NCBI GenBank assembly: GCA_903825105.1
Contig: CAIJZI010000009.1
Location: 216-64,215 of the forward strand
Direction of reading: 5' to 3'
Length of the DNA stretch: 64,000 nt
From: an uncultured bacterium
Lineage (GTDB): Bacteria > Patescibacteriota > Minisyncoccia > Phycocordibacterales > Phycocordibacteraceae
Under the pieces are notes generated by a model. It did no database searches. It was not told the DNA's origin and was given only the letters and a program-made list of their open reading frames with translations. Position 1 is the stretch's first letter. Every line of letters begins with the position of its first letter. Shown piece after piece: positions 7,929 to 30,185 of the stretch. The position numbers and the translations under genes are program-made.

Positions 7929-8966
7929 TTAATTTCCGTATTTACCTTGGCAGATTGGCAGATAACGGTCTGTAGCATAAGCAGAAGAAAAACTTTGATG
8001 GCTTAATACACACACCGCGGCGGCGGCACTACAATGCACATCACCTGCAGCTTTTACGCATTTATTGAGAATTGTTGCATCACCACCAGCAGTAAATCCA
8101 CTTCCGTTTGGATTGAATCCTTTTTTACAATTCAGTGCAACACCTGGCGTTCCAACTGCTTCTTCGCATACAGGGATGTTATAGCAGTCGCTGTTACTCT
8201 GTAATAAAACCTGGTAGGCTCCTGCTGCGGTCGAAGCTTTTCCTGCATACTTACCACCAAGATCTTTATTCCAGAACTCATTTTCATTGTAATTGTCCTT
8301 ATTCGTTTTCCCGCAATCGCTCTCTCCTTTTGCTATACAGGCGAGCAAATTCGCAGTTTTTATCGAGACACCGGGCACAGCGTCGACAATAGTTTGAGGA
8401 TTACAAGCGTTGCCAGAAACATTGTTCACAGAAAAATCGAGCGTCTGCCCTGTCGCTGTAATACCCGTGATATCCGCCTCATTTAATTTATCTGTCGGTA
8501 AAGATCCTGCCTGCTTAAGACATAATTTGCCTTCGCCTTTTATAAGTGACGACCATGCGTCCCACCCTGGTACATCTGGGTGATATAAGGTCACCATCAC
8601 CGCATCGACAATAAGCCACGCTGAAACCGCGACGACGAGACCGATAACCGTATCCAAAATCGCTTTACCCTCTTTTGTTCTCACCGCTGGCGCGTCGGGA
8701 TGTGTGACGATATTAAAACCCGCGAAAGCGATGCGTATTGGCACGAGTAAAACAATGCCGAGAGTGAGGAGGAGTTGTATGACATTATTAACAACAGTAA
8801 TCAACATCGCCCAATTACCTGGACACAAATCAGAATCTGCAATACCCGAAGCACTCTCTGGAGGAATAATAGGCCCCCAGAACGGGATAGCAGCGTGTGC
8901 AGCTGCCGGCAATATGAGCGCGGTGGATATTAATAGAAAAAATAAAAGAAATGTGCGAGAACGCAT
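7929..8966 (-). CDS. Secreted/membrane protein with a VirB2/TrbC-like N-terminal module and a Cys-rich C-terminal domain, possibly lysozyme/transglycosylase-like
   Basis: Signal peptide, TM-KEGK-TM module like the 44.9-47.6 kb array, then many Cys and an ES...AYQ motif. Confidence 0.4.
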   Translation of the reverse strand: MRSRTFLLFFLLISTALILPAAAHAAIPFWGPIIPPESASGIADSDLCPGNWAMLITVVNNVIQLLLTLGIVLLVPIRIAFAGFNIVTHPDAPAVRTKEGKAILDTVIGLVVAVSAWLIVDAVMVTLYHPDVPGWDAWSSLIKGEGKLCLKQAGSLPTDKLNEADITGITATGQTLDFSVNNVSGNACNPQTIVDAVPGVSIKTANLLACIAKGESDCGKTNKDNYNENEFWNKDLGGKYAGKASTAAGAYQVLLQSNSDCYNIPVCEEAVGTPGVALNCKKGFNPNGSGFTAGGDATILNKCVKAAGDVHCSAAAAVCVLSHQSFSSAYATDRYLPICQGKYGN

Positions 8967-9041
8967 ATTTGTAGTATACCGCCTGAGGCTACATAGGCGA
9001 CGCCTTTTCCACTCTTTTTTATCGTGTTATCGTTACGCGAA

Positions 9042-9116
9042 GGGTCTATAGTTTCAATGGTAAAATGTCGGTCTCCAAAACCGAAGTTGCTGGTTCGAAT
9101 CCAGCTGGACCCGCCA
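9042..9116 (+). tRNA. tRNA-Trp(CCA), CCA encoded
   Basis: Acceptor GGGTCTA/TGGACCC, anticodon loop CTCCAAA, T-arm GCTGG-TTCGAAT-CCAGC. Confidence 0.85.
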
Positions 9117-9134
9117 AACGAAATAACCGCAGAA

Positions 9135-9683
9135 TTACTGAAACACGCAGAGGCTCGTGACGATCGGCTGCATAATCGCATAAATCCACCCGACGCAGAT
9201 GCCAGCGATAAGAAGATAGGCAGTACTGATAAAAATCTTTTGCACCACTCCCTTTCCTTTCCCAATTGCGACTAAACGCTCTTTCAGTGATTCGTAGAGA
9301 GCGCCAAAAAAGGTGAAAGCGATATAACAGAAGCTCACGAAGAGAAGACTGCGGAGCGCGCTGTCGCTCGAGAATGTCCGCCCTACAGAACTACAATATG
9401 ATTGTGAGAGAAATACGATAAGAGAAAGTTCTGCACTCACGAGGAAAAAAGCTTTAATAACAGTGAAGCCAACGCGAACCATTAAGATAACGAGCAGTGC
9501 GCCAACGGCGAGTAAAACGAGCGGCCACATCCCGTTGACGAACCACGCACGCAAATAACTCGAAGTAGCAATGATAATAGCACCAACAATAATCACCAGA
9601 CTGATCGGCACCACGCGCTCGATCTGATGGAGCGTCTCTCCGCCAAGTGAAATCGAATGATCTTTTTTCTGTTCTTCGTTCAT
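9135..9683 (-). CDS. Hypothetical multi-pass membrane protein
   Basis: Hydrophobic helices; start trimmed to an internal Met to avoid overlap with the ABC-F gene. Confidence 0.4.
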   Translation of the reverse strand: MNEEQKKDHSISLGGETLHQIERVVPISLVIIVGAIIIATSSYLRAWFVNGMWPLVLLAVGALLVILMVRVGFTVIKAFFLVSAELSLIVFLSQSYCSSVGRTFSSDSALRSLLFVSFCYIAFTFFGALYESLKERLVAIGKGKGVVQKIFISTAYLLIAGICVGWIYAIMQPIVTSLCVFQ

Positions 9684-9699
9684 TATTTTATTATCTCGC

Positions 9700-11160
9700 T
9701 TAGACGCCCAAATCCAAAATGTCATCGATGCGAATCTGCTCAACAAATTCTGGCACATGCGAGACGAGAATCATCGCACCGGTATATTGATCAAGCGCTT
9801 TGGCTATAATCGGCAAGTGACGGAAGTTGATATGGTTTGTCGGTTCGTCGAGAATAAGAAGCCCGGGTCGCTCGAGTACGAGCGAAGCGAAGGCGACAAG
9901 CCCTTTCTGCCCTTCTGATAAATTGCCTATTTTTGTCTGCATCACATTCGCCATCAGTAAGAAGCCAGCGGCGGTGGCACGCAATTTTTGTTCATCGGGC
10001 TGACCCATCGCTTTCATCAGTGCATCAAAAACGGTTTGATCGAAATCAAGTGTAGAAAAATCTTGGCGGTAATAACCAACCTTCACGCCCTCAGCTATCC
10101 CCGCGCCTTCGGCTGTGCCACGCGCGATGTGTTCAAGCAGGGTACTTTTCCCGATACCGTTTGGCCCGCGCAGGAGAAGATGATTATTTTTACGCAGAGA
10201 GATATTCACTTTTTTCTTCACCGGTTTTTTACCATTAAAAATACTGCAGGAAGTGAGAGCGAGCACTTCGCCACTTAACTTTTCTTGAGCAGGGATCGTG
10301 AACGGCCGAATCGGTGCATCTTCCTTTCGCACATCAACCTTCGATTCTTCCATTTCTTCAACCTCCGTACGCATCTTCTTCGCGACGAGACGCATCTTAC
10401 CGCCCTTCTGCGCGAAGAAGTTCGCTTTATCTTTATTCTCTTGAATTTTTTTCTCGAGCTGTGCGTTCTTCTTATTTTCTCGATCGATACGCGCGACAAT
10501 ATCGCGCTGTACATCGTTATAGTTCCCCGCATACTGCTCGATCTTGTGCGTGAAGACATCGAGATACAAAACACCCGTCGTAAATTTATTTAAGAAGTGT
10601 GCGTCGTGCGAGATCACGATGCAGGAATGTTGGTAATCGACGAGAAATTTTGTTAAATGCTCGATACCGGCGGTGTCGAGATTGTTCGTCGGTTCATCGA
10701 GAAGAAGAAGATCCGGGTCTTGAATCAGCGCTGAAGCGAGGAGAAGTCGCGCCTGTTGGCCACCAGAGAAGGTGCTCATCAATCGATCGTGCAGCTTCTC
10801 GTGATGTTTTAAATTCACTACTTCGAGCACCGCGTCGATTCTTGGGTCGATGTCATAAACCGGCTTATCAAAACATTTTAAGAAAAATTCGCGAACAGTG
10901 AGCGCGAGATCCGCGCGCGGGATAACCTGTGGAGCTGTCGCCACTCTCACACCACGCGACTGATGTATCTCTCCCGATTCTGGCTTTAAGACTCCTGCCA
11001 TCAAGTTGAAAAGCGTCGACTTCCCGGCACCGTTCTGACCCATTACCGCGAGCTTCATCCCGCTACGCACAGGGAAATCTACTTCGTCGAGTATTGGTTT
11101 ATTGTGCCCGTATCCAAACGAGACCCCTTCAAATCGTAAAATACTTTCTTCTCGACCCAT
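9700..11160 (-). CDS. ABC-F family ATPase (two tandem ABC domains, no TMD)
   Basis: Two Walker A sites (GQNGAGKST, GPNGIGKST), two signature motifs and a charged linker. Confidence 0.8.
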   Translation of the reverse strand: MGREESILRFEGVSFGYGHNKPILDEVDFPVRSGMKLAVMGQNGAGKSTLFNLMAGVLKPESGEIHQSRGVRVATAPQVIPRADLALTVREFFLKCFDKPVYDIDPRIDAVLEVVNLKHHEKLHDRLMSTFSGGQQARLLLASALIQDPDLLLLDEPTNNLDTAGIEHLTKFLVDYQHSCIVISHDAHFLNKFTTGVLYLDVFTHKIEQYAGNYNDVQRDIVARIDRENKKNAQLEKKIQENKDKANFFAQKGGKMRLVAKKMRTEVEEMEESKVDVRKEDAPIRPFTIPAQEKLSGEVLALTSCSIFNGKKPVKKKVNISLRKNNHLLLRGPNGIGKSTLLEHIARGTAEGAGIAEGVKVGYYRQDFSTLDFDQTVFDALMKAMGQPDEQKLRATAAGFLLMANVMQTKIGNLSEGQKGLVAFASLVLERPGLLILDEPTNHINFRHLPIIAKALDQYTGAMILVSHVPEFVEQIRIDDILDLGV

Positions 11161-11314
11161 AATTCTGTTTTATTAAATTTTAAAATAACATATTTTTCCA
11201 AAAAGCGCAACTCTGCCGCATATTCTAGCTGCGACGCCGCCGTAGTTGACAAATACAAGCGACTGTGCTTTTTTAGACTGATCTGAGAAGATCAGCAGAA
11301 AGAGAGTCCAGAAG

Positions 11315-12252: not shown

Positions 12253-12556
12253 AGACGAACTCGCGAAGCTTATTCTCGCTGGAGAAAAGACTCTTACTTG
12301 GCGACTGTTTGACGATAAAAATTTGTCTCAAGGCGATGATGTTGGTTTTATCAATTCAAATACTAAAGAAAAATTCGGCGAAGCGATTCTGACAAAAGTT
12401 TATGAAAAGAAATTATCTGAAGTTGAAGGCGAAGATTTTGATGGACATGAGAGATATTCAAGTGGAGAAGAAATGTACCAGACTTATCGAACTTATTATG
12501 GCGACAAAGTCGGTCCTGACACCATTGTAAAAATCATTCGTTTCGAGTTGAAATAA
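12227..12556 (+). CDS. ASCH domain protein
   Basis: N-terminal LILAGEKTLTWRL is the ASCH beta-barrel signature. Confidence 0.55.
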   Translation: MEKKTIKFKDELAKLILAGEKTLTWRLFDDKNLSQGDDVGFINSNTKEKFGEAILTKVYEKKLSEVEGEDFDGHERYSSGEEMYQTYRTYYGDKVGPDTIVKIIRFELK

Positions 12557-12574
12557 CCCCGCTAACCAATCAGG

Positions 12575-12976
12575 GTGTATACTTCCCTCATGTCTAAACA
12601 CGAAGGATTTCCAAGTCATTCAGAATCAGAAAAAGAACCGACACGAGGAGAAAAAATAATTGCATTAGCAAAAGAACTTTTTGAAAGCAATGAGACTTTC
12701 GCTTTTTTTGGTATTGACCTAGAGTCATATTTAAAAATGAAAGCGGGCGAAGCAGAAGATCCGGGCTACACGACTCCTATCGATGAGAATATCGAGAGAT
12801 TTGAAAATGAAGGAATGAAAGTCGTTCAAGGGAAAAATCCTCAAAGCGGGAATGTATATATTCTGCCAGCAGGAAGTACTGATATTGAAATGGATAGTAT
12901 TTCTCCCAGACAACTTAAGGTCAAGGAAGGAATGGATCCGAGACTTAAGGAATTAATTTTGCTTAGTAGAGGATAA
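12575..12976 (+). CDS. Hypothetical protein
   Basis: ORF in an AT-rich accessory stretch. Confidence 0.35.
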   Translation: MYTSLMSKHEGFPSHSESEKEPTRGEKIIALAKELFESNETFAFFGIDLESYLKMKAGEAEDPGYTTPIDENIERFENEGMKVVQGKNPQSGNVYILPAGSTDIEMDSISPRQLKVKEGMDPRLKELILLSRG

Positions 12977-13003
12977 AAAACATTTACCTATTCGGCAAAA
13001 AAG

Positions 13004-13207
13004 ATGTATCATACCATCATGAACCTATTCAAACCAACCACCTTTACTTGGAAAGAAATCGCGCTGTTAAAATGGAGCGTGTTACTTATCGGTATCGCGA
13101 TTGGCGCGGAGTGGGCGAACATTTTTTCGAATTATTTTCTCGTGCTCATTATTATTGGCCTTATTCTCTGCATCCCGCCCACCATCGCGTGGATTAAGGG
13201 GCATTAA
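13004..13207 (+). CDS. Small two-TM membrane protein
   Basis: 67 aa and hydrophobic; a second ~53-aa hydrophobic ORF follows at about 13216-13377. Confidence 0.3.
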   Translation: MYHTIMNLFKPTTFTWKEIALLKWSVLLIGIAIGAEWANIFSNYFLVLIIIGLILCIPPTIAWIKGH

Positions 13208-13397
13208 AAAATAATATGATAATAAAAGGAAACTTTATCGGTGCGGCGATTGTAGCGATAATTTATACAATCTACATTTTGTGGCATCCATTTCCGATGA
13301 AATGGCAGATGGCGTCAGCACTCGTGATTCTAAACGCTCTCACGATTATACTTTTATCTTTTGCTTTTAAGATATAAGACTCCAACGGTTTTCTATC

Positions 13398-14882
13398 TTA
13401 CTCAACATGCACCTGAATATCCGTGCGTTCATTTTTTAATTTCAAAAAGAGAATCGTGAACGCGCCAACAAAGACAATAATCGACGAAATTAAGAAAACG
13501 AATGCATACGCATCCACCTGCGCCTTAAGCGTAATGAGACTGACATAGGTTTGGATGTCAGAAGGAATATGGCTTGAGAGTTTACTGAAGCTGTTGATCG
13601 TGAGCACATTCGTCGTGATGCGATTGTTGAGAATCGTCGCGAAGATGGCGATACCGAACGCGCCGGCGATGTTGCGCACGAGCGCGAGAATCGACGAAGC
13701 GATACCGATCTCACTCTCCGGTACGACCGAGGCAACGATGTTGGTGCGTTGTGCCATACCGAGGCCCAGCCCAAACGCCATCACCGAAAGCGGGATAACG
13801 ATATCGAGGGCCGTCGAGCGCGGATCGAGCCCGGTAAAAAGATAAATGCCGACTGAAGCGATGATCGTGCTCCAGAATATGACATATTTTGATTTTACTT
13901 TTCCTGTCAATCTGCCACCGATCGGCGCGCCCACCATCATCATCACTGCCATTGGGATAAAGAGGTAGCCCGATTCAGTCGCGCTGTAGCCGAGAAAGGT
14001 TTGTGCGAAAACGGGAGTGAGAAAAACGCCGCCCATCATCCCCATAAAGACCACGAAGTTGTTCACGAGCGCATTCACGAATGCAGGAATCTTGAAGAAT
14101 TTTAAATCGACAATCGGCTCCGGCGCTTTGTGTTCAATTTTAATAAAGAGACCTAAGAAAATGACAATGGCGAAATAGCAGATAATGCTCGCGACTGACA
14201 ACCAACCCCAATCTGATCCGCGGTCGAGAACGAGTACAAGCGCCGAGAGCATACTGCCGAGCGTAAGTGCGCCCCACCAATCAAAAAATTTCGTTTCTAT
14301 TTTTGAACGCGACTCGTTGATGAATCGCAGTGCCATATAGACACCCAAAAGGCCTATCGGTAAATTAATAAGAAAGACTGATCGCCAACCGAAGTTGTCG
14401 ATGAGTGGTCCACCAAGCAAGGGGCCAAAGACTACTGCGGCGGCAAATGAAGAAGACCAGATACCGAGCGCCTGCGCGCGCTCTTTCCCCTGTTTAAAAG
14501 TAACGGCGATAATCGCCATCGCGGTTGGATAATCGGCAGAACCGGCGATCGCCTGAATAATGCGAAAAACAATCATCGACGAGAGATTCCACGAGAGTCC
14601 TGCGAGAACTGAACCAACGATAAAAATACTAAAACCAAGAATGTACACCTTCTTTCTGCCGATCGTGTCTCCCAATTTCCCCCAAATTGGCACAAAAACG
14701 GCATTTGCGAGAATATACGCCGTCGCGATCCATCCGGCAGCAGAGACCGTGATGCCGAAGTCGTTGATAATCTTCGGCAAAGCGAGATTAACGATCGTCT
14801 GGTCGAGACGGCCAAGGAATGTGCCGATAATAACGGTGAAGAGAATCCACCAGCGCAGATTATTTTTTGGCTCTGGTGACAT
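13398..14882 (-). CDS. emrB-like: MFS transporter, DHA2 (EmrB/QacA) family, 14 TMS
   Basis: N-terminal WILFTVIIGTFLGRLDQTIVNLALP and length are typical of DHA2. Confidence 0.85.
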   Translation of the reverse strand: MSPEPKNNLRWWILFTVIIGTFLGRLDQTIVNLALPKIINDFGITVSAAGWIATAYILANAVFVPIWGKLGDTIGRKKVYILGFSIFIVGSVLAGLSWNLSSMIVFRIIQAIAGSADYPTAMAIIAVTFKQGKERAQALGIWSSSFAAAVVFGPLLGGPLIDNFGWRSVFLINLPIGLLGVYMALRFINESRSKIETKFFDWWGALTLGSMLSALVLVLDRGSDWGWLSVASIICYFAIVIFLGLFIKIEHKAPEPIVDLKFFKIPAFVNALVNNFVVFMGMMGGVFLTPVFAQTFLGYSATESGYLFIPMAVMMMVGAPIGGRLTGKVKSKYVIFWSTIIASVGIYLFTGLDPRSTALDIVIPLSVMAFGLGLGMAQRTNIVASVVPESEIGIASSILALVRNIAGAFGIAIFATILNNRITTNVLTINSFSKLSSHIPSDIQTYVSLITLKAQVDAYAFVFLISSIIVFVGAFTILFLKLKNERTDIQVHVE

Positions 14883-25485: not shown

Positions 25486-25510
25486 CTATTTTTTCTTTTT
25501 CTATTTTCTG

Positions 25511-25583
25511 AGCCACCCCGGAGAATCGGACTCCGGACCTTCGCGTTACGAATGCGATGCTCTACCAACTGAGCTAGGGTGGC
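25511..25583 (-). tRNA. tRNA-Thr(CGT), atypical T-loop TCCGATT
   Basis: Acceptor GCCACCC/GGGTGGC, D-arm GCTCAGTTGGTAGAGC, anticodon loop TTCGTAA; A31:C39 mismatch and C at position 55. Confidence 0.7.
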
Positions 25584-26410: not shown

Positions 26411-26764
26411 ATGGAAGGACTCACTAATTATGAAAAAACAGAGCGCCCGTGGGGAAACTTCGAGCGCTTCACGCTCAATGAATCGTCAACGGTAAAAATA
26501 ATTTCTGTAAAAGGTGGCGAGGAGTTAAGCCTGCAAATGCATTTTCACCGCGACGAGTTTGGAAAAATATTAAAAGGTAATGGCACTCTGCAAGTTGGAG
26601 AAAGTGAACGAGAAGTAAAAGAGGGCGACTCATTTTTTATCCCGCGAGAAACAAAGCACCGGGTGACCGCGGGCGCGAGCGGTATCGATTATCTCGAAAT
26701 CGCCTTTGGCGAATTCGATGAGGAGGACGAGACGCGCATCGAAGACGATTACGGGAGGATTTAG
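26411..26764 (+). CDS. Cupin-domain protein (mannose-6-phosphate isomerase type II C-terminal-like)
   Basis: ERPWG...H.H...E cupin metal-site pattern; start at internal Met. Confidence 0.5.
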   Translation: MEGLTNYEKTERPWGNFERFTLNESSTVKIISVKGGEELSLQMHFHRDEFGKILKGNGTLQVGESEREVKEGDSFFIPRETKHRVTAGASGIDYLEIAFGEFDEEDETRIEDDYGRI

Positions 26765-26825
26765 ACAAAAAGAACCCCGCACACCTCTCGCTTAAAAAGC
26801 GATTGATATGCGGGATCCGTGCCCA

Positions 26826-27299
26826 CTAGTTAAGCTGCTGGAATCCCATCAGAGAATAAACCCGTTGATGGACCCCGTTGTATACAACCGGACACAACCT
26901 CGTGCCTTTTGTCGGACAATTCAAGAGACACACTCGTGCATCCCACCCATTGGCAATTACTCTCGAACCGAGCGCTATGACGGCAGCCCTCCCATCCTCC
27001 GAAGGAAAAACGTCCTTATGGAAAGAGAAGGCGAGATGCCAAGCGGTCGGAAGATTCCAACCAGCAGACACGATGGCGTCCTGCTCTTCTTCCCAATCGG
27101 GAGAGAACAGGTGGCCATTTGTCTTATGAAAGAGGATCCCTTCGAACTTGAAGGTTTTTCTAATTCCGCAATCAGTCTTGACCTGGTCAGCGATGTCATC
27201 GCAGACACCCAAAGGGCGGCCAGTTTTCTTCTCGATAAGCGACCGAAACTTTGAGTGATATGTACCTTCGAAACGGAAAGGCTTTCCTTTTGTGAACAT
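26826..27299 (-). CDS. Hypothetical protein
   Basis: Minus ORF with a GGGGAG RBS before Met 27299; a competing plus-strand ORF exists. Confidence 0.3.
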   Translation of the reverse strand: MFTKGKPFRFEGTYHSKFRSLIEKKTGRPLGVCDDIADQVKTDCGIRKTFKFEGILFHKTNGHLFSPDWEEEQDAIVSAGWNLPTAWHLAFSFHKDVFPSEDGRAAVIALGSRVIANGWDARVCLLNCPTKGTRLCPVVYNGVHQRVYSLMGFQQLN

Positions 27300-27387
27300 T
27301 GTTCTCCCCGATTTACAAGATTTTGAAAAAGAGCAGATACGCTCCACGGGCAGTATATACCGCCTTGATTTATTAGCAATGCTTCGC

Positions 27388-27420
27388 ATAAAAACGGGCG
27401 CCCACTGAGGTGAGCGCCCG
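27388..27420 (-). terminator. Rho-independent terminator
   Basis: cgggcgc...gcgcccg hairpin followed on the minus strand by UUUUU. Confidence 0.65.
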
Positions 27421-27429
27421 ATCAAACGA

Positions 27430-27654
27430 TCAACCTGCTTCATCAAAACCGATTTTGAGCTGACCGTACAATTCAAGCTGTTTGTGTTTCGGGATTTCTC
27501 CGATCAAGAGCTCCAAGGAGGTGAGAAAATCCTCAATGTCACTCTTGAGATCTTGGCTCGTTGAACATTTTGTCCTGAACAAGGCGACGAGAAGTTTCAT
27601 TCTCGTTGAAAGACTTTTGTCGAGAGTCAGTGCCTCTTGCGCTGCGATCGTCAT
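27430..27654 (-). CDS. Small acidic protein (74 aa) co-transcribed downstream of the radical SAM gene
   Basis: Start at internal Met MTIAAQEAL with a GAGG RBS; the longer annotated ORF overlaps the rSAM gene. Confidence 0.4.
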   Translation of the reverse strand: MTIAAQEALTLDKSLSTRMKLLVALFRTKCSTSQDLKSDIEDFLTSLELLIGEIPKHKQLELYGQLKIGFDEAG

Positions 27655-27761
27655 TTTAATACCTCGCTCGAATCCGTTTGAACTGTACTCCTCAACAAAA
27701 TAGAAAGCAATATTTAGAAAAACCCGCCGGCGGAGCCGGCGGGGATCGATTAGAGAAAGAA

Positions 27762-28634
27762 CTATTTCATACAGAGTGCACCTTCTTTGATCCACGAATA
27801 CGCGACCGTCCCGTTCTGAAAGACGACGAGCTGACGCACGAAGTCTTTGTGCGGGTCGTGCTTCGTCACATAGTCGGTGAGACGCAGGATCGCGCCGTTG
27901 TAGTCGTAGACGCCGCCACCCCACACATGTCCGTGGCAGAGCTTCGTATTCTTGCGAAGCCACCAGCGAATAGAGAGAATGCCGAGCCGCGATGGGGTGA
28001 ATTCACTGCGCGATCCGTCCGGATTCCCGACCGGCCACGAAGTGATGTTATCGACGCCGTAGTCGTTGATGAGTCTGCTCACCGCTGATTCGTATGATTC
28101 TGCGTTATCGACGCCGCCACGCCGCAGAAGGAGCGTGCCGCGCACACCGACACCAAACTTCCTGATGTCCTCGAATATTTTTCGAAACTCAGGATATCTG
28201 GGAAGTCGGTATGCAGCAGCCTGTTCGGCCTGATCAACTGAATGAATTGAGATGGCGATGTTCGTGAGTCCAAGTTCCCTCCAGCGAGGCAGCCACCGTT
28301 CGCAGAATGATTCATTCGCGAAGAGTATGCCGTTTGTAAAGAGATTCACATTTGGGAAGTACGCGCCCTGATCCGCACATTTTTTGTACACTTCGAGCGC
28401 TTTGGTCACCGCAGACGGGCTACAGGTTGGCTCGCCGCTGCTCGTTAAAGAGAGCGACCAGCCGCCATAGCGAGCACAAAGCTTAATCGCCGCCTCATAA
28501 TTCTTCCAATAAAGCGGGTTGTCTATCTCCGCATCCGGGCGAAGATATTTGCCAGCGCAGAATGCACAATTGCCATTACACGCGCCACTCCCGACAAGCG
28601 CCGAAACGCTGTAGATTTTTTCAATGCACGCCAT
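27762..28634 (-). CDS. Radical SAM enzyme (activase-like, single 4Fe-4S cluster; family unresolved)
   Basis: CNGNCAFC (CX3CX2C) at residues 19-26, glycine-rich SAM motif LTSSGEP, TNG and AISxxS motifs; no SPASM or second cluster. Confidence 0.75.
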   Translation of the reverse strand: MACIEKIYSVSALVGSGACNGNCAFCAGKYLRPDAEIDNPLYWKNYEAAIKLCARYGGWSLSLTSSGEPTCSPSAVTKALEVYKKCADQGAYFPNVNLFTNGILFANESFCERWLPRWRELGLTNIAISIHSVDQAEQAAAYRLPRYPEFRKIFEDIRKFGVGVRGTLLLRRGGVDNAESYESAVSRLINDYGVDNITSWPVGNPDGSRSEFTPSRLGILSIRWWLRKNTKLCHGHVWGGGVYDYNGAILRLTDYVTKHDPHKDFVRQLVVFQNGTVAYSWIKEGALCMK

Positions 28635-28701
28635 AGTTCCTCCTTATCAAAAAACCGCTCTCCGTTTATGAGTATGCGGGTGATAGAAAAGATTAAAATG
28701 G

Positions 28702-28756
28702 CTATATGTTGTGCTTTTTTAATATAAATATGCTTGCTTATGACTATATATTGTCG
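28702..28756. promoter_or_regulatory. Divergent promoter region with NrdR-box-like AT palindromes
   Basis: gACTATATATTGTc (28742-28755) is one mismatch from the NrdR box core ACTATATATAGT; a weaker copy gCTATATGTTGTG lies at 28701-28713. Confidence 0.35.
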
Positions 28757-28768
28757 TATGATGTGCTT

Positions 28769-29224
28769 ATGAAATGCATTTACTGTCAGCAGAGCGGGAC
28801 CGAGGTGGCGAACTCGCGTTCGGTAGCGCGCGATACGAGCATCTGGCGACGCAGGCACTGTTCTTCTTGTGGAAAGACATTTACCACACGCGAAACATCG
28901 GTTGGCGATAATTTATTTGTGATAAAAAGAAATGGATCACGACAACGATTTGTATATGAAAAGTTTTTTGCTTCGATTTATTTCGTCTTACATACCGGCA
29001 AAAAGAGCGACAGCGGCGATTCTGCAAAGATGGCAAAAGAGGTCACCCTCGCGGTACTCGAACAAGTGTTTTTGAATAATAAAGGAAAGGAGGTGCGGAC
29101 AAGTAAGCTTATAGAGCTCACTTATAAAGAATTACGAAAGATTAATCGTTCGGTCGCCTTCGCCTACGGCACCTATTCTGAATATCGCTCTAAAAAGCTC
29201 ATACAAATGGGCTTTATGGTGTAG
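28769..29224 (+). CDS. nrdR: Transcriptional repressor NrdR
   Basis: MKCIYCQ...CSSCGKTFTTRE zinc ribbon and an ATP-cone. Confidence 0.9.
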   Translation: MKCIYCQQSGTEVANSRSVARDTSIWRRRHCSSCGKTFTTRETSVGDNLFVIKRNGSRQRFVYEKFFASIYFVLHTGKKSDSGDSAKMAKEVTLAVLEQVFLNNKGKEVRTSKLIELTYKELRKINRSVAFAYGTYSEYRSKKLIQMGFMV

Positions 29225-29292
29225 AATCGCCAGTACTTGCATTTATTATTATATGGGTTAGGATACTCGCACGGGAAATTGGAGCCCGTAAG

Positions 29293-29640
29293 ATGAAGAG
29301 ACTGCTCTTTCTGCTCAGTTTTGCGGCCATTTTGGCCACTATTACCGCCCTGCCGGCCAACGCAGCCATCCCGGCCAATACCGTCACTTCCACCATCTCG
29401 ACCTCGACGACCACCGCCTTTGTCCCGACCCCGCCGCCGGCAACGGCACGGCCCAGCGATGCGCTGATGCTGCCAGGATTGACGGCCACGGACAAGCCGC
29501 AGCCAGCGCAGCGACTCACGGCATTCTTGCCGATGCCGCCGCCTCCTCCTCCGGACCTTCCGCCGCCACCGCCGGACCCGAACGCGCCTCCTCCGAGGTG
29601 TGAGTATCTCATCGACCTTCTGAACCCTGCGTGCTGGTAG
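29293..29640 (+). CDS. Secreted proline-rich protein
   Basis: Signal peptide, PPPPPPDLPPPPPDPNAPPP, C-terminal Cys pair. Confidence 0.5.
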   Translation: MKRLLFLLSFAAILATITALPANAAIPANTVTSTISTSTTTAFVPTPPPATARPSDALMLPGLTATDKPQPAQRLTAFLPMPPPPPPDLPPPPPDPNAPPPRCEYLIDLLNPACW

Positions 29641-29710: not shown

Positions 29711-29750
29711 CAAAACAAAAAACGCCTTTGGGAGGGCGTTTTTTGTTTTG
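29711..29750. terminator. Bidirectional terminator (A-run, hairpin, T-run) serving tRNA-Asp
   Basis: aaaacaaaaaacgcc-tttgggag-ggcgttttttgtttt. Confidence 0.7.
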
Positions 29751-29824
29751 CGCGGTCGACCGGACTTGAACCGGCAACCTTCCGCGTGACAGGCGGATGC
29801 TCTAACCAGTTGAGCTACGACCGC
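29751..29824 (-). tRNA. tRNA-Asp(GTC)
   Basis: Acceptor GCGGTCG/CGACCGC, anticodon loop CTGTCAC, T-arm GCCGG-TTCAAGT-CCGGT. Confidence 0.85.
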
Positions 29825-30106: not shown

Positions 30107-30180
30107 GCTGGTGTAGCTCAGGTAGTTAGAGCATGGCACTCATAAAGCCAAGGTCGAAGGTGCAAGTCCTTCCACCAGCA
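30107..30180 (+). tRNA. tRNA-Met(CAT) (could be Ile-lysidine), atypical D- and T-loops
   Basis: Acceptor GCTGGTG/CACCAGC, anticodon loop CTCATAA; D-loop AGGTAGTTAG lacks GG and T-loop is TGCAAGT (G55). Confidence 0.65.
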
Positions 30181-30185
30181 CAAAA

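Follow-up and report, generated by a model that had tools for sequence, protein, structure and literature searches.

A conserved radical SAM gene paired with nrdR across NrdR boxes in candidate phyla radiation bacteria, with a proposed role in nucleotide supply

We analysed a 64-kb stretch of DNA from an uncultured Patescibacteriota bacterium (contig CAIJZI010000009.1, assembly GCA_903825105.1), referred to here as the window. A gene for a radical S-adenosylmethionine (SAM) protein of 290 aa, which we call rSAM-A (27762-28634, minus strand), is divergent from an nrdR-like repressor gene of 151 aa (28769-29224, plus strand), and two NrdR-box palindromes lie between them. Comparison with related loci showed that the conserved unit is the nrdR/rSAM-A pair. 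Two further open reading frames (ORFs), of 74 aa and 157 aa, are carried by the minus strand beyond rSAM-A. An initial annotation of the same DNA had described the divergent arrangement across a palindrome, and that description held apart from the nrdR start, which is at 28769 and not 28770; the 290-aa ORF that it reported, with CX3CX2C at residues 19-26 and a TSSGEP motif, was present as described.

The nrdR product matched Zn_ribbon_NrdR with 52.9 bits and ATP-cone with 30.2 bits, both above the gathering threshold, but scored only 61 bits against the TIGR00244 equivalog model (cutoff 124.65). Given that both Pfam domains were above threshold, this shortfall points to a divergent NrdR subfamily. 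The four cysteines of the Zn ribbon and the KR of the ATP-cone were invariant in 12 NrdR copies from the candidate phyla radiation (CPR).

Box A, ACTATATATTGT (28743-28754), is the one place in the window where ACWANATNTWGT is matched exactly. Box B, GCTATATGTTGT (28701-28712), lies on the rSAM-A side with one mismatch, 42 bp from box A. Matches to ACWANATNTWGT with at most one mismatch numbered 9 in the window against 4.7 expected. When orthologous DNA was included, the core CWANATNTWG was found six times in 1.9 kb of nrdR-rSAM intergenic sequence and 13 times in 125.6 kb elsewhere, an enrichment of about 30-fold. Alignment of seven intergenic regions of the Paceibacteria type showed two conserved islands, ATCAATATATTGT beside the nrdR start and GCACAACATATAGCTCTTTTAAT, with the rest divergent. 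Nine further loci were scanned for boxes, defined as exact or one-mismatch cores, and eight of them had a box at about -25 relative to the nrdR ATG (-23 to -26 in seven). A partner box near -67 (-64 to -67), 42 bp from the proximal box, was found in five of the nine, and in locus L069 an equivalent 42-bp pair sits at -12/-54.

The positions of the boxes were compared with candidate promoter elements that we identified by inspection. The putative hexamers of the nrdR promoter are TTGCTT (28734-28739) and TATGAT (28757-28762), and box A occupies the 17 bp that separate them. The nrdR ATG lies about 7 nt past the -10 hexamer, so that the nrdR transcript may be leaderless. Box B adjoins a conserved TTTTAAT (28691-28697, minus strand) about 55 nt upstream of the rSAM-A ATG, a putative -10 element of rSAM-A. 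The Shine-Dalgarno sequence AAGGAGG (28639-28645, minus strand) was read 4 nt before the same ATG, and its GGAG is kept in the aligned orthologous leaders. The boxes are tandem, whole helical turns apart and conserved in orthologous promoters, the features by which a member of an NrdR regulon is recognised in sequence. The proposal that the palindromes were NrdR boxes was borne out. The further suggestion that they merely autoregulate nrdR was half right: box A occupies the nrdR promoter spacer, but the conserved box B abuts TTTTAAT on the rSAM-A side. Rodionov and Gelfand are said to have reported in 2005 that the usual spacing of NrdR boxes is 31-32 bp, in contrast to the 42 bp at rSAM-A, and that nrdDG operons are typical NrdR targets.

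One other NrdR-box-like sequence, ACTATATATAGG, was noted at 256-267 of the window, where it precedes the topA start (286) by 19 nt. It has no partner box at a usual spacing, and the match may be due to chance, although type IA topoisomerase genes are also frequent near rSAM-A in archaeal loci.

We found rSAM-A in 33 genome loci, and nrdR was its immediate neighbour in eight (L003, L004, L010, L017, L029, L030, L031, and L034). These carry the labels Paceibacterota, Moraniibacteriota, Dojkabacteria and Collierbacteria, together with one 'Parvarchaeota', one 'Pseudomonadales', and one 'bacterium'. The divergent pair was also present in L054, L055, and L057 according to precomputed Pfam annotation, with differing other flanks (SecA; GGACT/HSP20/LeuRS). 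All cellular bacterial loci examined had nrdR next to rSAM-A. The two genes stay adjacent in four or more CPR lineages, whether they are divergent or co-directional and with otherwise unrelated flanks, and the NrdR link that the initial annotation had raised is meaningful in that it is kept across several CPR lineages. The sole bacterial-labelled locus without nrdR was L023 (29-5681), a GC-rich sequence in which rSAM-A lies between two large phage-like ORFs that we take, from their sequence, to be terminase and portal.

We also sampled in the reverse direction, searching metagenome contigs with an NrdR alignment; a 12-sequence alignment proved too diverse and a 7-sequence subset was used. Among the ten loci obtained, rSAM-A was divergently adjacent to nrdR in six, a small ORF was present in two, and the neighbours were other or unknown in two. 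In L068 (139-1108) and L069 (48-1027), the NrdR subtype is divergent from an ORF of about 100 aa plus a 190-aa gene, again with two boxes 42 bp apart. By eye we take the former to be MazG-like and the latter class-II-aminoacyl-tRNA-synthetase-like, and both are further candidate members of the regulon of this NrdR.

The rSAM-A protein has the cluster motif C19-x3-C23-x2-C26 and TSSGEP at residues 64-69. It matched PF04055 Radical_SAM over residues 16-165 (42.7 bits against a gathering threshold of 29.5, E = 9e-11) and no further Pfam domain. With C19, C23 and C26 invariant, SSGEP at 65-69 and a score above the threshold, it belongs to the radical SAM superfamily. Neither a SPASM domain nor the RNA-binding and tRNA-recognition domains PUA, THUMP and TRAM were detected with Pfam. 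The family alignment showed invariant residues outside the SAM cluster, namely Cys3, C233-H-G-H-x-W-G-G-G, and Cys288, and further invariant Arg, Lys, His and aromatic residues spread along the full length. An auxiliary site for a metal or for redox chemistry may be formed by Cys3, Cys233-His-Gly-His and Cys288. The initial annotation had described the enzyme as having no SPASM domain or second cluster; the first part was confirmed by Pfam, and these invariant residues leave the second part unestablished.

Searches of rSAM-A against Pfam, NCBIfam, PADLOC and PHROGs returned the generic superfamily match only, with nothing from PHROGs. The best NCBIfam models were MoaA TIGR02666 (23.7 bits, cutoff 284), HxsC, and viperin NF038283 (21.1 bits, cutoff 180), and the PADLOC pVip models matched the N-terminal core only (E = 2e-4 and 3e-3). 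A profile of the family found nothing better than E = 0.05 among PDB sequences. This classification with hidden Markov models (HMMs), in which no curated model came near its cutoff, agrees with the earlier view that the family is not assignable from sequence.

The homolog search gave 599 matches, the best 120 of which were all 288-290 aa long, 71-86% identical, named generically only, and derived from Patescibacteria/Parcubacteria and Woese-/Nanoarchaeota. Identity among orthologs from CPR bacteria, DPANN archaea and viral contigs of IMG/VR was 59-86%. Among 58 full-length copies, median identity was 70% between bacteria and archaea (range 59-81%) and 65% between cells and viruses. No family member was found among the viral structures of BFVD (maximum 20% identity), no tblastn match was found in GenBank phages at 1e-10, and a literature search found, in the library covered, no paper on the family or on an NrdR-radical SAM link beyond NrdG. 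By these comparisons rSAM-A represents an uncharacterised, unusually conserved family common to CPR bacteria, DPANN archaea and uncultivated viruses.

An AlphaFold2 model of rSAM-A (predicted local distance difference test, pLDDT, 84; predicted template modelling score, pTM, 0.85) showed a partial TIM barrel matching radical SAM structures. The nearest PDB fold was MoaA (1tv7/2fb2; Foldseek E = 1e-11, template modelling (TM) score about 0.6), followed by mouse and fungal viperins with bound CTP/UTP (6q2p, 6q2q, 9dfn; E about 1e-9). Identity in the fold matches was 14-19% and TM was 0.55-0.63. The model aligned with MoaA over its full length, including the C-terminal region of about 120 aa that had been described as unique. 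Since the core barrel is common to all radical SAM enzymes, the top matches to MoaA and viperin are a lead and not a test of substrate class.

MoaA, a GTP 3',8-cyclase, is the closest known enzyme. Both proteins have an N-terminal CX3CX2C, a length of about 290-330 aa and three further conserved cysteines outside the SAM cluster, and MoaA, the best fold and the best (weak) HMM match, acts on a nucleoside triphosphate. However, identity is 16%, and the extra cysteines of rSAM-A, at 3, 233 and 288 with CHGHxWGGG, differ from the CX2CX13C of MoaA. No MoaA/MoaC-like family was present among the recurrent neighbour clusters of rSAM-A, and linkage to NrdR is distinct to rSAM-A. We rejected MoaA itself as an identification (23.7 against 284 bits, no Mob_synth_C, no CX2CX13C), leaving it as the nearest fold only. 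QueE (7-carboxy-7-deazaguanine synthase) was likewise rejected: no QueE model matched, no QueC/QueD/FolE-like family recurred among the neighbours, and none was seen in the Pfam-annotated CPR flanks. One viral locus does contain a GTP cyclohydrolase I. The archaeal LipS1/LipS2 and HxsB/HxsC systems resemble rSAM-A and its paralog rSAM-B, described below, in being paired-paralog radical SAM proteins, with faint HxsC and LipS1 matches. However, these matches barely rise above noise, with 12.7-21.8 bits where the cutoffs are 230-268, and no lipoate or His-Xaa-Ser context was found.

In the DPANN loci nrdR is absent, and a conserved 276-aa protein resembling a winged helix-turn-helix (wHTH) regulator is divergent from the operon in 23 loci. 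This protein had no match in Pfam, NCBIfam or PDB. The operon begins with AAA_28, which resembles NadR-type kinases, and continues with CYTH (triphosphate tunnel), an unknown protein of 169 aa, rSAM-A, and rSAM-B. A metallophosphoesterase gene similar to YfcE is convergent with it, and beyond the wHTH regulator there is often a topoisomerase of type IA. The divergent promoter contains an element of about 55 bp that consists of TACAACAC, a GACAAA-N-TTTGTaC palindrome, a TATA-like GTATATA and, last, TACAAsTC. It was found at L001 7111-7225, L007 4134-4230, L019 8642-9004, L026 9920-10000 and about 12 other archaeal loci; extra copies were partial, seen in L014 only, beside unrelated genes. The wHTH protein and this element look like a dedicated regulator and operator in place of the nrdR of CPR bacteria.

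The paralog rSAM-B follows rSAM-A in many loci, overlaps it translationally and is about 33% identical to it; the rSAM-B copies of L067 (a CPR contig) and L019 (archaeal) are also only about 33% identical to one another, against a bacterial-archaeal median of 70% for rSAM-A. No rSAM-B, intact or as a degraded remnant downstream of rSAM-A, was found in the window, and none was found in the examined flanks (up to 10 kb each side) of most bacterial rSAM-A loci, so rSAM-B is not obligatory. A shorter paralog, rSAM-C (about 240-270 aa), was observed upstream of rSAM-A in L012 (8595-9332), L014 (8754-9473) and L038 (8812-9633). The copy scanned, from L012, had MoaA, viperin, QueE and NrdG2 as its best weak matches. 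In L026 (7414-16402), rSAM-A and rSAM-B have two ORFs upstream and Elp3 downstream (NCBIfam); from their sequence we take the upstream ORFs to be a PP-loop tRNA-thiolase-like protein and a ThiF-like E1.

IMG/VR yielded 16 contigs (L038-L053; 37-501 kb, GC 27-49%) with rSAM-A at 60-73% identity, and 10 of the 16 also carried rSAM-B. The viral neighbours included PolB, a PolA-type polymerase, DnaB and SNF2 helicases, a PurZ-like enzyme, adenylosuccinate synthetase, IMPDH/GMP reductase, and the GTP cyclohydrolase I mentioned above. Tpt1, NADAR, SpoU, PTH2, an Rv2179c-like exoribonuclease, DNA methylases and homing endonucleases were also present. Taken together, the bacterial, DPANN and viral contexts place rSAM-A among nucleotide and replication functions, with a minority signal of RNA repair or modification.

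Two of the viral loci showed unusual arrangements. In L050 (8328-13414), PolB is apparently split (8328-10001 and 12308-13414), with rSAM-A, rSAM-B and a 222-aa unknown protein between the halves. In L053 (10001-16183), rSAM-A ends after residue 100 and is followed by a LAGLIDADG homing-endonuclease-like ORF (10348-11241), and about 4.6 kb further on there is a PurZ-like gene (phrog_1211, which carries the description 2-aminooxy adenylosuccinate synthetase). L053 may be a Z-genome phage with a disrupted copy of rSAM-A.

We characterised the remaining features around rSAM-A in the window. An intrinsic terminator (27723-27743, minus strand), whose stem of nine G-C pairs is closed by a 3-nt loop and followed by TTTTTCT, lies 19 nt past the rSAM-A stop and about 70 nt ahead of the 74-aa ORF (27430-27654, minus strand). 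Because this all-GC stem separates the two genes, rSAM-A is monocistronic, and the co-transcription with the 74-aa ORF that had been proposed finds no support. The rSAM-A ortholog of L055 has an equivalent hairpin. An Rfam scan of 26700-29400 gave a sub-threshold sroD match over the terminator and nothing else, therefore no riboswitch in that interval.

The 74-aa ORF has a GAGG some 9 nt before the start codon, its own terminator behind it (27420-27395) and gene-like codon usage (log-likelihood 0.25), so that the ribosome-binding site and terminator ascribed to it earlier were confirmed. Its description as acidic is weak (isoelectric point 5.2, 11 D+E against 9 K+R). When 1.84 billion representative sequences were searched exhaustively with HMMER, only its identical self-match was returned, plus repeat-like noise in long proteins. 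The identical sequence is present on nine contigs with gene order unchanged, which indicates one population sampled repeatedly. The 157-aa ORF (26826-27299, minus strand), also present as first described, recovered only its identical self in the homolog search. Searches of Pfam, NCBIfam, PADLOC and PHROGs placed neither ORF in a family, and tblastn matched neither in any related locus. In L055, the closest relative with context (rSAM 83% identical), the terminator is followed by unrelated ORFs of 65 aa and 137 aa. Both ORFs lie outside the conserved unit and, by this comparison, are lineage-specific passengers; the 74-aa ORF may be a real orphan gene, yet no conserved partner of rSAM-A. The enzyme and the 74-aa protein had been treated as a pair in one operon, which the terminator, the lack of homologs and the unrelated ORFs of L055 contradict. 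Across the survey, rSAM-A homologs were not paired with the small protein, and in about 60 loci nrdD was nowhere within 10 kb.

The codon-usage log-likelihood was 0.16 for rSAM-A, 0.07 for nrdR and 0.04 for the 157-aa ORF, while the long housekeeping genes of the window had a median of 0.295 and a 5th percentile of 0.185. These low values at 26826-29224 are consistent with horizontal acquisition of the block. The region is flanked by tRNA-Thr(CGT) (25510-25583), tRNA-Asp(GTC) (29750-29824) and tRNA-Met(CAT) (30107-30181). A proline-rich ORF of 115 aa (29293-29640) lies just 3' of nrdR and has an apparent N-terminal signal sequence, PPPPPPDLPPPPPDPNAPPP.

The reading that we favour, and consider probable by a small measure, is that rSAM-A is an NrdR-repressed radical SAM enzyme of MoaA/viperin-like fold that acts on a nucleotide and belongs to a DNA-precursor or nucleotide-supply regulon. 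Its supports are the synteny, the operators, the nucleotide context in three independent settings (DPANN operons, viral contigs, and the presumed MazG-like neighbour of this NrdR type where rSAM-A is missing), the fold, and the strong sequence constraint. From these we infer that NrdR binds and represses, that the substrate is a nucleotide, and that the extra Cys/His residues have a role. The enzyme, free-standing and monocistronic with one canonical [4Fe-4S]/SAM site, would abstract hydrogen from a nucleotide, most likely from the ribose of a nucleoside triphosphate. An NrdR oligomer would occupy both boxes, the 42 bp between them being four helical turns, with one operator in the nrdR promoter spacer and the other beside the putative rSAM-A -10, and would repress both divergent promoters. 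rSAM-A would be made when the dATP/ATP signal reports scarce DNA precursors, and expression under that signal would place it in a deoxyribonucleotide or nucleotide-supply regulon.

Several observations weigh against this reading. The synteny sample comprises about 20 bacterial loci, mostly fragments of metagenome-assembled genomes. No clear -35 is visible for rSAM-A, and a generic promoter scan called no promoter there. The better box is in the promoter of nrdR itself, and both boxes are also present with a different neighbour gene. The matches to MoaA and viperin, at their low identity and TM values, are weak evidence for substrate class. The L026 neighbours (Elp3 and the presumed PP-loop- and ThiF-like proteins) point to RNA/tRNA chemistry, as do Tpt1, SpoU, NADAR and PTH2 in the viral loci, and AAA_28/CYTH may be an independent unit merely alongside rSAM-A.

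The placement of box A and the retention of two boxes with other neighbours mean that co-regulation of rSAM-A could be a by-product of nrdR autoregulation. In the corresponding alternative, which we regard as improbable but worth serious weight, the nrdR adjacency would be inherited or hitch-hiking synteny, the boxes would serve nrdR only, and rSAM-A would modify tRNA, rRNA, DNA or a cofactor. The modification part of this alternative draws on the L026 setting and its presumed tRNA thiolase- and ThiF-like ORFs, on the viral Tpt1, SpoU methylase, NADAR, PTH2 and Rv2179c-like exoribonuclease, and on a very high conservation that is typical of enzymes recognising a conserved macromolecule. However, the adjacency persists in at least four CPR lineages, in both layouts and among unrelated flanks, and box B with TTTTAAT is conserved on the rSAM-A side. 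The lack of detectable PUA, THUMP or TRAM domains also speaks against macromolecule modification, and the most recurrent archaeal partners, AAA_28, CYTH and Metallophos, are small-molecule phosphate enzymes.

A bolder form of the nucleotide reading, to which we assign a low probability, is that rSAM-A, alone or with rSAM-B, produces a DNA precursor through a reaction that none of the three known classes of ribonucleotide reductase (RNR) uses. The reaction could be a 2'-deoxygenation of a ribonucleotide initiated by the 5'-deoxyadenosyl radical, with Cys3, Cys233 and Cys288 as a redox relay or as ligands of an auxiliary cluster, or it could be some other step in dNTP synthesis that needs no RNR or no folate. 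Such a route would explain the NrdR control in CPR bacteria, the dedicated regulator in DPANN archaea, the presence in viral replication modules, and the extreme purifying selection.

It is quite unlikely, in our judgement, that rSAM-A is an atypical activase, an NrdG analogue for a class III RNR or another glycyl-radical enzyme encoded elsewhere. An accessory role to a class III RNR, one of the options that the initial annotation had offered, gained no support. The resemblance is in arrangement: nrdDG operons are typical NrdR targets (PMC4009431), and at rSAM-A too a radical SAM gene lies behind tandem NrdR boxes at integral helical turns. The N-terminal CX3CX2C and single-domain layout also resemble activases, one rSAM-B homolog is named 'pyruvate-formate lyase-activating enzyme' by JGI, and rSAM-C and viral rSAM-B gave weak NrdG/NrdG2 matches (1.5e-7 to 6e-3). 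However, rSAM-A matched no NrdG or PflA model of NCBIfam at E<=0.1 (NrdG being TIGR02491, TIGR02495 and TIGR02826), and E. coli NrdG gave no phmmer match to rSAM-A or rSAM-B at E<=1e-2 among stop-to-stop ORFs of at least 80 aa from L001-L035 and the window. nrdD and nrdG are normally adjacent, and an E. coli NrdD phmmer search found nothing in the window or within +/-10 kb of about 51 genome and viral loci. We therefore rejected NrdG as an identification on the grounds of model, query and nrdD association. The protein is also about twice the size of NrdG, and a cross-domain identity of 70% is atypical for activases. As first noted, no RNR gene was found in the window, either among the ten ORFs of at least 432 aa that were scanned (topA, relA/spoT, pyrG, PPDK, infB and gyrA included) or with E. 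coli NrdA, NrdB, NrdD and NrdG queries. The sole RNR-like ORF near any rSAM-A copy is an NrdA-like (class I/II) fragment at the contig end in L026 (15215-16402), 4.3 kb downstream, so at least one rSAM-A carrier also has a conventional RNR.

Very unlikely, too, is a viperin-like nucleotide dehydratase making chain-terminating analogues of the 3'-deoxy-3',4'-didehydro (ddhNTP) type for defence or inter-organism conflict. Viperin and the pVips, which are 3'-deoxy-3',4'-didehydro synthases acting on CTP, UTP or GTP, are of similar size to rSAM-A and supply its second-best folds, with weak HMM matches of 1.5e-4 to 3e-3, and the adjacent nucleotide-kinase-like AAA_28 of the archaeal operons recalls kinase-associated pVips. 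Yet the viperin score was 21 bits against a cutoff of 180, the PADLOC matches were confined to the N-terminal core, identity is 15-19% and the C-terminal motif is another; on these scores and matches we rejected viperin/pVip as an identification. Many viral contigs themselves carry rSAM-A, inside replication modules, and the cellular copies stand beside housekeeping genes and not in defence islands. The proposed NrdR control fits supply over defence, and conservation is far above that usual for defence genes.

A peptide-modification system of rSAM-A and the 74-aa protein, like those of ribosomally synthesised and post-translationally modified peptides (RiPPs), is scarcely credible, and rSAM-A was rejected as an rSAM/SPASM RiPP maturase. 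The same-strand small ORF downstream, for all its ribosome-binding site and gene-like codon usage, lies beyond a strong terminator, has no homologs and is missing in every related locus; its absence from relatives is what the initial annotation had named as refuting the idea. The Pfam search revealed neither a SPASM/twitch domain nor a RiPP recognition element, and elsewhere rSAM-A precedes unrelated genes or rSAM-B.

The nucleotide-supply reading of rSAM-A bears on CPR bacteria and DPANN archaea, which are reduced symbionts with a little-understood nucleotide economy. What links them here is a radical SAM enzyme that is 59-81% identical between two domains, mobilised by diverse uncultivated viruses, and linked to the dATP/ATP-sensing NrdR. 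The small-protein 'partner' is removed as a false lead. If the NrdR control is true, the NrdR regulon gains an enzyme class that is new to it, and the 290-aa, monocistronic protein would be a small candidate, easy to express, in which to look for new radical chemistry on nucleotides. The family would then be, at minimum, a new MoaA/viperin-like enzyme transforming nucleoside triphosphates and, at most, an RNR-independent step towards DNA precursors.

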